From positions 30,584 through 94,583 of the IMG/VR virus record IMGVR_UViG_3300033146_001635: a DNA stretch of 64,000 nt, one strand, 5' to 3'. Below the pieces are notes generated by a model. That model saw nothing but the letters and a program-made list of their open reading frames with translations, had not been told where the DNA came from and did not search any database. Every line of letters starts with the position of its first letter. The first letter of the stretch is position 1. Source of the stretch: a virus. A program made the translations under genes and the position numbers. Positions 37,676 through 40,610 of the stretch are shown here, one piece after another.

Positions 37676-40610
37676 AAAATTGCACAATATTATATTGTGA
37701 AAATACAGGGTGTAACTTATTAATAATCATAAAAATTTGCACATTAATAAAATGTGACCACTCGGATAACAATTGCTATTTATAAAAATAAAATTACACA
37801 ATATTATATTGTGAAAGTAACGAGTGTAACTTATTAATAATCATAAAAATTTGCACATTAATAAAATGTGATCCGATGGACATAGACTATTATTTATAAA
37901 AATAATTATATTGTGTCGAATTGAATAATGTGGGTCCCCTATATATTTAATATTTTATATTTTTGAATTTGCACATCAATAAGATGTGATGTAGTAGATT
38001 CCCGTCTAACAAATATAAAAAAATTTGCATATCAAAAAGATGTGACATGCTTTCCTGGTAGATCCCACTATTGATAGTTATAAAAATAAAATTACACAAT
38101 ATAATATTGTGATTGAGAAATATGGTGACAATATAAAATAATATATTATAAAACTACACATTGTAATAATGTGTCCGAGTGCCGGAGTCGAAAATATTAT
38201 TAGATTTTGCACGTTAATAAAACGTGACTGCGGACTTTAACATCTATTTATAAAAATAAAATTACACAATATTATATTGTGAAAGAAAATAAGGAGCAAA
38301 ACTTATTAATAATCATAAAAATTTGCACATTAATAAAATGTGACCAATGGGGACAATGCAAAATAATATATTATTATAAACTACACATTGTAATAATGTG
38401 TCCGTGTGCCAGGATCGTAAATATTATTAGATTTTACACATTAATAAAATGTGACACAGTCGATATCAACACCTATTTATAAAAATAAAATTACACAATA
38501 TTATATTGTGAAAAAAAATAAGGAGCAAAACTTATTAATAATCATAAAAATTTGCACATCAATTAGCTGTGACATCCCTTCGCTTTCAATCCTTCATAAA
38601 CAATTAATTAATATATTAATAAAAAATAAAATTGCACAATATTATATTGTGAGAGGACAGAATGTAACTTATTAATAATCATAAAAATTTGCACATTATT
38701 AAAATGTAACATTCGTTCCACCTATACGATCTTTCATAAACACTCAATTAATATTAATAAAAATAAAATTACACAATATTATATTGTGGAAAGTAGGAAA
38801 TGTAATTTATTAATAATCATAAAAATTTGCACATCAATTAGATGTGACACACCTCCTCGACTTTTACCAACTTCATACATAACAATATATCTAAATTATC
38901 TATTAAATATTTAAATTTGCACATTAATAAAATGTGACCGTTGATGGATGAATTTCATACATAACAATATATCTAAATTATCTATTAAATATTTAAATTT
39001 GCACATTAATAAAATGTGACCATCCTACTGGATGAATTTCATACATAACAATATATCTAAATTATCTATTAAATATTTAAATTTACACATTAATAAAATG
39101 TGACCCATATGTCGTGATTATACTAACTTCATACATAAAACAATATATCTAAGTTATTTATTAAATATTTAAATTTGCACATTAATAAAATGTGACCACG
39201 GTGGGGCAGATATCAACTTCATACATAAAACAATATATCTAAGTTATTTATTAAATATTTAAATTTGCACATTAATAAAATGTGGCCAGGGTTGAACAAA
39301 TATCAACTTCATACATAAAACAATATATTCAAGTTATCTTTTAAACATTTAAATTTGCACATTAATAAGATGTGACCTCGGTTGAGCAGATATCAACTTC
39401 ATACATAAAACAATATATTCAAGTTATCTTTTAAACATTTAAATTTGCACATTAATAAAATGTGACCACCGTGGGGCAGATATCAACTTCATACATAAAA
39501 CAATATAATCAAGTTATTTATTAAATATTTAAATTTGCACATTAATAAAATGTGACTCCCTTCCCCTTCTGGATCCTTCATATAATATCAATAAAAATAA
39601 AATTGTACAATATTTTATTATGACAATTTCTGACTAAAACATATTATTATATTTCATATTTTTAAATTTACACATTAATAAAATGTGGCCGGCCTTCTCT
39701 CTTATATATCTTGTTTATTTACAAAATTACAAATTATTTGCATATTAATAAAATGTGACTTGAGCGTGCGGTTGATAAATATTAAGATTTATAAATAATA
39801 AAATTACACAATATTATATTATGATAACCCCGATTAACCAATACATGTTATACAATTATATATAAATTAATACAATATTATCAAAATTTTAAAATTTGTA
39901 CATCAAAAAGATGTAACTTGGAAAAATAAGATTGTTTATTATTATTATATATTCAAAAATTTGTATATCAAAAAGATATAACGATGATTGTCATAACTAT
40001 ACATATTTAAATTTGCACATCAAAAAGATGTGACAAACTGGAACCTTGCAAAAAAATATGACAAGCTGGGATTTGAATTAATAAATATATTTAAAATTTG
40101 CACATCAAAAAGATGTGATTGGATGCTTACAACACATAAGTATACAATAAATTATTCTAAATACAGGTGGATGAGATTAATTTACTCACTTGTATTTAAA
40201 ATTTGTACATTAAAAAAATGTAACTTTAAAAAATTGTTTATTATTATATATTCAAAAATTTGTATATCAAAAAGATATAACGATGAAGGTCATAACTATA
40301 CATATTTAAAATTTGCACATCAAAAAGATATGACCCGAAAAAATTGCTTATTATTATATATTCAAAAATTTGTATATCAAAAAGATATAATGACGTGGAA
40401 GGAATACTAACATACATATTTAAAATTTACACATCAAAAAGATGTGGCTATACCGGAGTACACCATACATATTTAAAATTTACACATCAAAAAGATGTGA
40501 CATGTTTTATTCTCCTATCAAATATATAAAAATTTACACATCAAAAAGATGTGACATACTTGATTTCCCCTATCAAATATATAAAAATTTACACATCAAA
40601 AAGATATGGC
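37676..40610. repeat. Non-coding array of ~43 hairpin repeats (AAATTTG-CACATT-AATAA-AATGTG-AC and variants) with variable GC-rich segments
   Basis: Hairpins counted by hand from 37683 to 40592; periods mostly ~52-65 bp and 80-92 bp; compensatory stem changes. Confidence 0.92.

Follow-up and report, generated by a model that had tools for sequence, protein, structure and literature searches.

RNAs such as CsrB/RsmZ, ToxI and the pseudo-ToxI of phages carry many copies of a protein-binding motif on one transcript, and phages expand such repeats. These sponge RNAs and type III antitoxin arrays are built of uniform repeats and hold no hypervariable, GC-balanced insert. TIGR-Tas systems consist of units of ~36 nucleotides (nt) bounded by box C and box D, each with two spacers of 8–12 nt, and have an adjacent Nop-domain Tas protein (PMC12045711). 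Racr elements are solitary repeat units defined by their likeness to a host CRISPR repeat (PMC10651486). The early promoters of phage N4 are hairpins of 5–7 base pairs (bp) in which the non-conserved stem bases need only pair, and transcription starts a few bases past the stem (PMC4496689). Here we describe an array of small hairpin units in a 64,000-nt stretch of viral DNA, referred to as the window, which comprises bases 30584–94583 of one virus contig of 94,583 bp (IMG/VR record IMGVR_UViG_3300033146_001635). The array lies at window positions 37683–40610. Each of its units combines a hairpin with a short variable segment, and the most likely interpretation of the whole is a battery of small RNAs unlike any described so far, with a putative function that is set out below.

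The array resembles type V CRISPR (Cas12a-like CRISPR RNA; cas-distant arrays in huge phages) in that hairpin repeats lie in one orientation with a unique segment after each. In both, AAAUUU stands just 5′ of a stem of 5–6 bp with a loop of 4–5 nt, the guide-like part follows directly 3′, and the row stands between a leader that carries a promoter and a terminator. However, the repeats of the array are non-uniform, with at least seven stems, seven loops, several unrelated leaders and a period of 49–133 bp, and its unique part of just 13–22 nt is followed by a conserved AT-rich linker of 20–60 nt. No Cas family was found in the scanned proteins (mainly those of the array flanks and the larger open reading frames (ORFs), on a contig that holds ~26% of the genome). 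A search for a hairpin-like CRISPR repeat gave only single chance matches, eight in 185,579 species genomes and four in the JGI metagenomes, and none among the CRISPR-DR entries of Rfam. A CRISPR array was rejected on these three grounds: the irregular repeats, the lack of a Cas family in the scanned proteins and the lack of such a repeat in the collections searched.

TIGR-Tas, in its dual-repeat and stem-loop forms, likewise occurs in phages, is poorly conserved in sequence, and has palindromic covarying elements and short spacers; Block I of the array, defined below, also alternates two repeat types. In contrast to TIGR-Tas, there is one insert per hairpin here, the covariation is that of a local 6-bp hairpin and not of a unit-closing stem, and the units measure 52–133 bp. 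These differences, together with the absence of an alternating UG/CCA (box C/D) frame and of any match to the Nop domain (PF01798) at E ≤ 1 in the contig, led to the rejection of this assignment.

Racr RNAs are also phage-encoded, protein-less, hairpin-bearing small RNA elements that bind a host protein. They are solitary or few, whereas 43 units with hypervariable inserts stand in a row here, and Racr was discarded because no resembling CRISPR repeat was found in the species genomes, the JGI metagenomes or Rfam. With the promoters of the N4 virion RNA polymerase, the array shares small DNA hairpins in which pairing suffices at the non-conserved stem bases. N4, however, has three such hairpins, GC-rich with a 3-nt loop, placed before early genes and read by a giant single-subunit polymerase. 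In the array there are 43 hairpins, AT-rich and with a centre of 5 nt; no genes follow them, and the phage that carries them has genes for a multisubunit polymerase. No N4-like polymerase was detected in the contig, again ~26% of the genome, an ORF of 2045 amino acids included. Compared to sponge and ToxI RNAs, there is no evident toxin or CsrA-type partner and no Rfam match. A ToxI-like type III antitoxin is disfavored, as the repeats are heterogeneous and 52–133 bp long instead of identical and ~34–45 nt, no toxin gene is evident nearby and Rfam is blank.

Pairing is conserved along the array

The array spans ~3 kb between + strand genes that end at 37629 and − strand genes that end at 40676, and only short repeat-derived ORFs are found inside it. 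Its parts are as follows.

37683..40610, + strand: whole array, 42 clear units and one decayed unit, period 49–133 bp, no credible ORF
37683..38846, + strand: Block I, CACAAT-ATTAT-ATTGTG palindromes alternating with CACATT/CACATC hairpins
38157 and 38384, + strand: units of Block I with a GTAAT loop
38210, + strand: unit of Block I with the stem CACGTT/AACGTG
38920..39554, + strand: Block II, eight CACATT-AATAA-AATGTG units in repeats of 82–92 bp, with near-identical frames and unrelated or fast-diverged inserts
39594..39625, + strand: decayed 43rd unit (GTACAAT..ATTATGA), covariance-model match of 27.2 bits, E 0.003
39899..40610, + strand: Block III, AAAAA-loop units with the stems CACATC, TACATC, TACATT and TATATC, and intermediates CACATC/GATATG

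An initial annotation of this DNA had placed the array at 37972–40389. The array is real, and its true span is wider than that range. All units have the + orientation, and outside the array a covariance model built from the 42 units scored nothing above 18 bits in the whole 95 kb, be it on the + or the − strand; the array is the only place in the contig with such units. A degenerate unit pattern gave 22 matches against 0.01 expected, so the array is not a chance occurrence. It clearly grew by duplication, and contains 18 distinct 17-mers with several unrelated leaders.

The same annotation held that the stem variants it listed all keep complementarity, and every one of them is present at the coordinate quoted for it. 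The perfect stems are distributed over the array as listed here.

12 units, + strand: CACATT/AATGTG
37972, 38830, 40016 and four more units, + strand: CACATC/GATGTG
38210, + strand: CACGTT/AACGTG
37683 and six more units, + strand: CACAAT/ATTGTG
39899, + strand: TACATC/GATGTA
39964, 40263 and 40373, + strand: TATATC/GATATA
40206, + strand: TACATT/AATGTA

The centre, described earlier as variable and always of 5 nt, indeed has this length in 42 of the 42 units and takes seven forms (AATAA, AAAAA, AATTA, ATTAA, GTAAT, ATTAT or ATAAT). In units of the CACAAT type, the palindrome reaches 8 bp, with one base at its centre. The imperfect units previously read as wobbles are T·G on the + strand at 38028, 39358 and 39741; at 38692, 39807, 40316 and 40592 they are C·A on the + strand, that is, wobbles on the − strand. 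These counts (three against four) are balanced and, as had been concluded, do not decide between the strands. The unit at 38555, absent from the earlier list, has a true T·C mismatch.

In the alignment of the 42 units, 97.7% of the pair cells are standard pairs and both sides have changed in five of the six stem pairs. None of 500 shuffles matched the observed pairing values, and merely 14–59% of the cells were paired when the 3′ arm was slid out of register. Since the units are duplicates of one another, a tree-based null was used, in which a tree was built from the non-stem columns by the unweighted pair group method with arithmetic mean and 30 parsimony-inferred stem substitutions were placed independently in 5000 runs. 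The null gave on average 6.7 perfect hairpins, 83% paired cells and 1.2 perfect stem haplotypes, compared to the observed 34 perfect hairpins, 98% paired cells and seven perfect stem haplotypes. No run reached the observed values (0/5000, P < 1/5000). The covariation therefore survives correction for duplication history, and the earlier claim that pairing, not sequence alone, is conserved stands under the duplication-aware null. At least six matched double changes are needed to account for the stems, at pairs 1/17 (possibly twice), 3/15, 4/14, 5/13 and 6/12, next to about seven or eight unmatched stem changes. The stems are under a pairing constraint.

Two other sources of such a pattern had been named at the outset. 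Template-switch correction still could give matched changes without selection, and is taken up below. A tolerant homodimer on duplex DNA fits poorly, because it offers no reason for both half-sites to change jointly at least six times, and because the element is polar, with AAAWTTR on one side and AC followed by random letters on the other.

Unit anatomy and a hypervariable insert

A position profile was averaged over the 42 units, with the first base of the hairpin as position 1. Each unit consists, in this order, of a G/C-free leader ending in AAAWTTR, the 6-bp stem with its 5-nt centre, AC, ~15 variable nt and an AT-rich linker. Positions −18 to −1 have 0–7% GC, with the conserved AAAWTTR at −7 to −1, and the hairpin occupies positions 1–17. 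Position 18 is A in 35 of the 42 units and position 19 is C in 30. At positions 20–34 the four bases are about equal in frequency (~45% GC) and carry zero information; from position 35 onward the sequence is AT-rich again, and the + strand is almost without G. The GC content of the insert thus compares to 0–10% in its flanks and 25% in the genome. The insert varies from 13 to 22 nt before the conserved linker begins. The conserved core (AAAWTTR, hairpin and AC) is polar, measures ~26 nt and is common to unit families with otherwise differing leaders. The following unit can serve as an example.

39166..39212, + strand: example unit core, with the leader end TAAATTTG, the hairpin at 39178–39194, AC, and the 15-nt variable segment at 39197–39211

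The hairpins have little stability as free RNA (−1.3 to −6.3 kcal/mol), so a bound partner would be needed.

Insert divergence was determined in 27 unit pairs whose 30-nt leaders differ at no more than three positions, with small shifts allowed in the insert. In these pairs the leader diverges by 5.9%, the hairpin with AC by 7.8% and the 15-nt insert by 52%, which makes the insert ~9-fold more diverged than the frame in units with near-identical leaders. Most inserts are mutually unrelated, and a few are point-mutated versions of one another, such as 39358/39448 and 39964/40263. The conserved frames hold swapped or very fast-evolving inserts that are GC-balanced in a 25% GC genome. That the insert is hypervariable yet GC-balanced is the strongest hint that it is used, most simply for base pairing. 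Because the linkers of the + strand are almost free of G, a + strand insert would stay unpaired.

In the near-identical units 39178–39211 and 39448–39481, the inserts begin with CCACGGTGG and CCACCGTGG, which are exact reverse complements by way of a single central G/C flip. A similar flip of the centre, ATTAT/ATAAT, is seen in the CACAAT palindromes (38095 versus the others).

Several more specific roles were considered and found no support. The inserts show no sign of targeting the phage's own sequence in the contig (match length 10.6 versus 10.7 for shuffled inserts), are not above shuffles as anti-start-codon seeds on either strand, and show no notable pairing with neighboring inserts (3.95 versus 3.79). 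Small peptides on the − strand were rejected, with frames broken in units 39002 and 39086 and Block I without a start codon. By eye, anticodon-stem-loop mimicry is not supported on either strand, U33 and purine-37 never both being present, and the TACA and TATA stem variants break the box that DnaA titration would require.

Transcription signals and competing explanations

A late-promoter motif, GAACATAWWAWTG(+1)A, lies upstream of many genes of the phage, with 11 sites in the window (11089–63002) and others at genome positions 16493 and 19723. Where chance predicts 0.07 matches to the pattern GAACATAWWAWTGA in the window, 11 are present, a 150-fold excess, and nine of the 11 are intergenic and face their gene. 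Both this motif and the promoter copy next to the array fit the AR9 late consensus AACA-(6N)-T A/G, the last base of which is the start (PMC5312081, PMC7598289). The motif points to a non-virion polymerase of the AR9/PBS1 type together with a gp226-like factor, and perhaps to uracil in the DNA of the phage. The signals around the array are as follows.

37342..37355, + strand: AR9-type late promoter GAACATAATAATGA, the only + strand copy in the window, with the predicted start G at 37354
40158..40198, + strand: degenerate internal copy of the terminator hairpin, −13.9 kcal/mol as + RNA and −11.7 as − RNA
40635..40681, both directions: strong two-way terminator hairpin, −27.6 kcal/mol (+) and −28.2 (−); on the + strand the stem is followed by a run of T

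The promoter at 37342 is located inside the ORF 37309–37629 and points into the array, ~330 nt before the first hairpin. No terminator-like hairpin was found between 37629 and the first unit. In the copy at 40158–40198, three of the four imperfections are G·U on the + strand, and pairing is better kept as + RNA. The terminator at 40635–40681 closes the array and separates it from a converging GNAT gene. Because the sole + strand late promoter points in, no terminator precedes the array and two stand at its end, a + strand transcript is favored and, on these sequence signals, is probable.

Promoter-like features were also sought in the units themselves. In two leader types there is a resemblance to the AR9 early consensus AAATATATATTAT-(6N)-G that would have RNA begin with the first hairpin base, although this AT-rich genome contains many such matches. 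Copies of the late promoter within the array were excluded, with no site of at least 9 bits on the late-promoter matrix of the phage, as was the use of the leader with the 5′ arm as a promoter elsewhere (best outside score 13.7, versus typically 15–23 inside the array). Bacteroidetes-type TAnnTTTG promoters were ruled out, as the phage uses strong Shine-Dalgarno sites, which lie ahead of its genes. It is noted that TATATATATTA(T/A) motifs, like the AR9 early consensus, occur at 48618–48840 (+) and at 15741 (+), preceding a structured non-coding stretch at ~48634–48805 and the + strand gene 15798. They are candidate early promoters of the phage.

We propose that the array may be a + strand transcription unit of a giant AR9-like phage. 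Its transcript would come from read-through of the upstream genes and from the late promoter at 37342, and would be stopped at the two terminators. It would carry 43 modules, each with a weak 17-nt hairpin between single-stranded AAAUUUR and AC, followed by the unique 13–22-nt segment. The hairpin and its flanks would form a handle to which a protein binds and which it probably excises; the linkers, rich in AU and poor in G, would be discarded, and the unique segment would pair with a nucleic-acid target, giving guide-like or seed-bearing small RNAs. With the unit anatomy, the hypervariable insert, the promoter and terminator layout and the pairing constraint in hand, we infer transcription, processing, a protein partner and base pairing by the insert. 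Such a processed array of + strand RNAs, each with a hairpin handle, a variable pairing segment and a putative protein partner, is our preferred reading, held tentatively. Considerably more doubtful is the proposal that giant phages have an RNA-guided system yet to be described, with this array as its guide library. In that case, and with the same reserve, the 26-nt handle might offer a ~15-nt guide to an effector from the rest of the genome or from the host. New guides could then arise, also at low probability, by insert replacement or strong diversifying selection, without regular repeats of the Cas1-Cas2 type.

Several observations weigh against the preferred reading of a processed + strand RNA array. 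The length and sequence of the repeats are far less regular than in any guide array made by an acquisition machine. The units with wobble-type mismatches split three to four between the + and − strands, the GC skew of the array is like that of regions transcribed from the − strand, and of the nine best sigma-70-like promoters of the contig, four are − strand sites within the array (three of them copies of a single repeat). No insert target was found in the contig or in phage records, and no partner protein in the contig, which covers ~26% of the phage genome. Searches for a related array, with which conservation could be tested, were negative in phage records (blastn at E 1e-5 and E 10), in IMG/VR (four unit patterns) and in pattern scans of the JGI metagenomes and the 185,579 species genomes. 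Relatives reached through the tail sheath and through the family of a 197-amino-acid protein encoded upstream of the array carry no array, and neither does a complete 312-kb relative; the closest large relative (102 kb) ends just short of the position matching the array. Covariance-model matches in the relatives are isolated chance matches. Direct searches with the 197-amino-acid protein and with a downstream protein of 174 amino acids returned no relative. Rfam gave nothing at the gathering threshold or at E ≤ 5, and no tRNA was found.

One alternative is that the 43 hairpins alone soak up an RNA-binding protein or nuclease of the host or the phage, the inserts being mere spacers. Precedents are CsrB for CsrA, pseudo-ToxI repeats for ToxN and Racr RNAs for Cas proteins. 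A single transcript that repeats a weak, protein-dependent hairpin many times, with its flanks conserved, agrees with a decoy, which the promoter and terminator layout fits as it fits the preferred reading, and the AAAUU flank is reminiscent of the A-rich sites at which ToxN-type enzymes cut. However, unconstrained spacers in a 25% GC genome should drift toward AT, whereas the inserts are at ~45% GC with ~9-fold the divergence of the frame. In addition, there is no toxin gene nearby and no hairpin-like CRISPR repeat in the species genomes, the metagenomes or Rfam. We regard a decoy as possible and rather unlikely.

An element acting at the DNA level, with the palindrome as a hairpin or cruciform or in single-stranded DNA, appears similarly improbable to us. 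It might be an N4-type promoter or the site of a structure-specific binder, and the insert would be a first-transcribed stretch or a clamp. The presence of wobble-type intermediates on both strands and the extremely AT-rich flanks, which favor extrusion, are consistent with it, and the N4 hairpin promoters provide a precedent (PMC4496689). The AR9 non-virion polymerase is able to initiate on single-stranded DNA (PMC7598289), the AR9-early-like motif in the two leader types would put the start at the first base of the hairpin, and several − strand sigma-70-like sites overlap palindromes. Nevertheless, no N4-like polymerase was found in the contig, with its ~26% of the genome, and the 2045-amino-acid ORF (L002:704-6841, + strand), which lies beside the virion genes, matches no PHROGs, Pfam or PDB sequence. 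The array leaders score below 9 bits on the late-promoter matrix and are absent elsewhere in the contig; 43 promoters without genes behind them would serve no evident purpose, and a hypervariable initially transcribed stretch would have no reason.

Least able to explain the array is a functionless tandem-repeat expansion, its quasi-palindromes kept perfect by intrastrand template switching in replication and not by selection: one-step copying of a change from arm to arm mimics compensation, the array clearly grew by duplication, and the single-base flips ATTAT/ATAAT and CCACGGTGG/CCACCGTGG fit such switching, yet the hairpin and its polar flanks are kept across families with unalignable leaders while the adjoining 15 nt are free, the GC-balanced inserts, single orientation, promoter and terminators are left unexplained, and 3 kb of dead weight is unusual for a phage, which makes this explanation improbable. 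We leave a comparably small chance for explanations that we have not thought of.

The phage, its genes and the meaning of the array

The contig is ~26% complete according to CheckV and has a GC content of ~25%. Its genes encode a tail sheath, a large terminase and beta- and beta′-like RNA polymerase subunits, and relatives of the sheath protein are found in genomes of up to 312 kb with terminal repeats. From the virion and polymerase genes and these sheath relatives, the contig is taken as a piece of a giant myovirus with its own multisubunit polymerase. A FolE2-type GTP cyclohydrolase I (E 3e-61; L001:10238-11095, +) is located beside the polymerase genes, and a radical SAM gene with an uncharacterized partner gene lies at window 32090–33575 (+). 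Together the FolE2 and radical SAM genes give a hint of a 7-deazaguanine (queuosine-precursor) DNA modification pathway. The start of the contig (L001:178-3643) has weak JAB and ThiF-like matches and a Rho_N domain protein, and an RlaP RNA-repair nucleotidyltransferase (E 2e-23) is found at L001:13114-14046. These genes are possible counter-defence or RNA-repair candidates.

The neighbors of the array are a GNAT acetyltransferase, small uncharacterized proteins and a tail-fibre-like protein. Directly upstream, at window 36719–37312 (+), lies the gene of the 197-amino-acid protein. The N-terminus of this protein is rich in Ser and Thr, its core is conserved (REFNKYINASDLLE ... VPIELFINWLI.KAAEQDG), and a CxxCG...FCN zinc finger lies at its C-terminus. 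No family of Pfam or PHROG matches the protein, and its own family occurs in many giant-phage contigs of 25–62% GC. In three relatives, the gene of this family is near large rows of tRNA genes, which are found there in place of the array. Two adjacent paralogous small proteins at window 41254–41679 and 41704–42228 (−) share GKKRC..Y.G..KEKCL.DVRKVFLEKKI, and belong to no known family and have no IMG/VR relatives.

As a by-product, the analysis provides an AR9-type late promoter for an uncultured phage lineage. Even if the units act as a decoy or as DNA hairpins, 43 covarying mini-hairpins in one phage would make an unusually clean natural test of structure versus sequence recognition. If the preferred reading of a processed + strand RNA array is true, giant phages are able to carry extensive libraries of very small RNAs, each a hairpin plus a guide, and such libraries would escape CRISPR and TIGR finders, since neither their repeats nor their period is regular. 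Few known guide formats would be as small as a 26-nt handle joined to a 15-nt guide, and finding the partner would then be worthwhile for phage-host biology as well as for its use as a tool.

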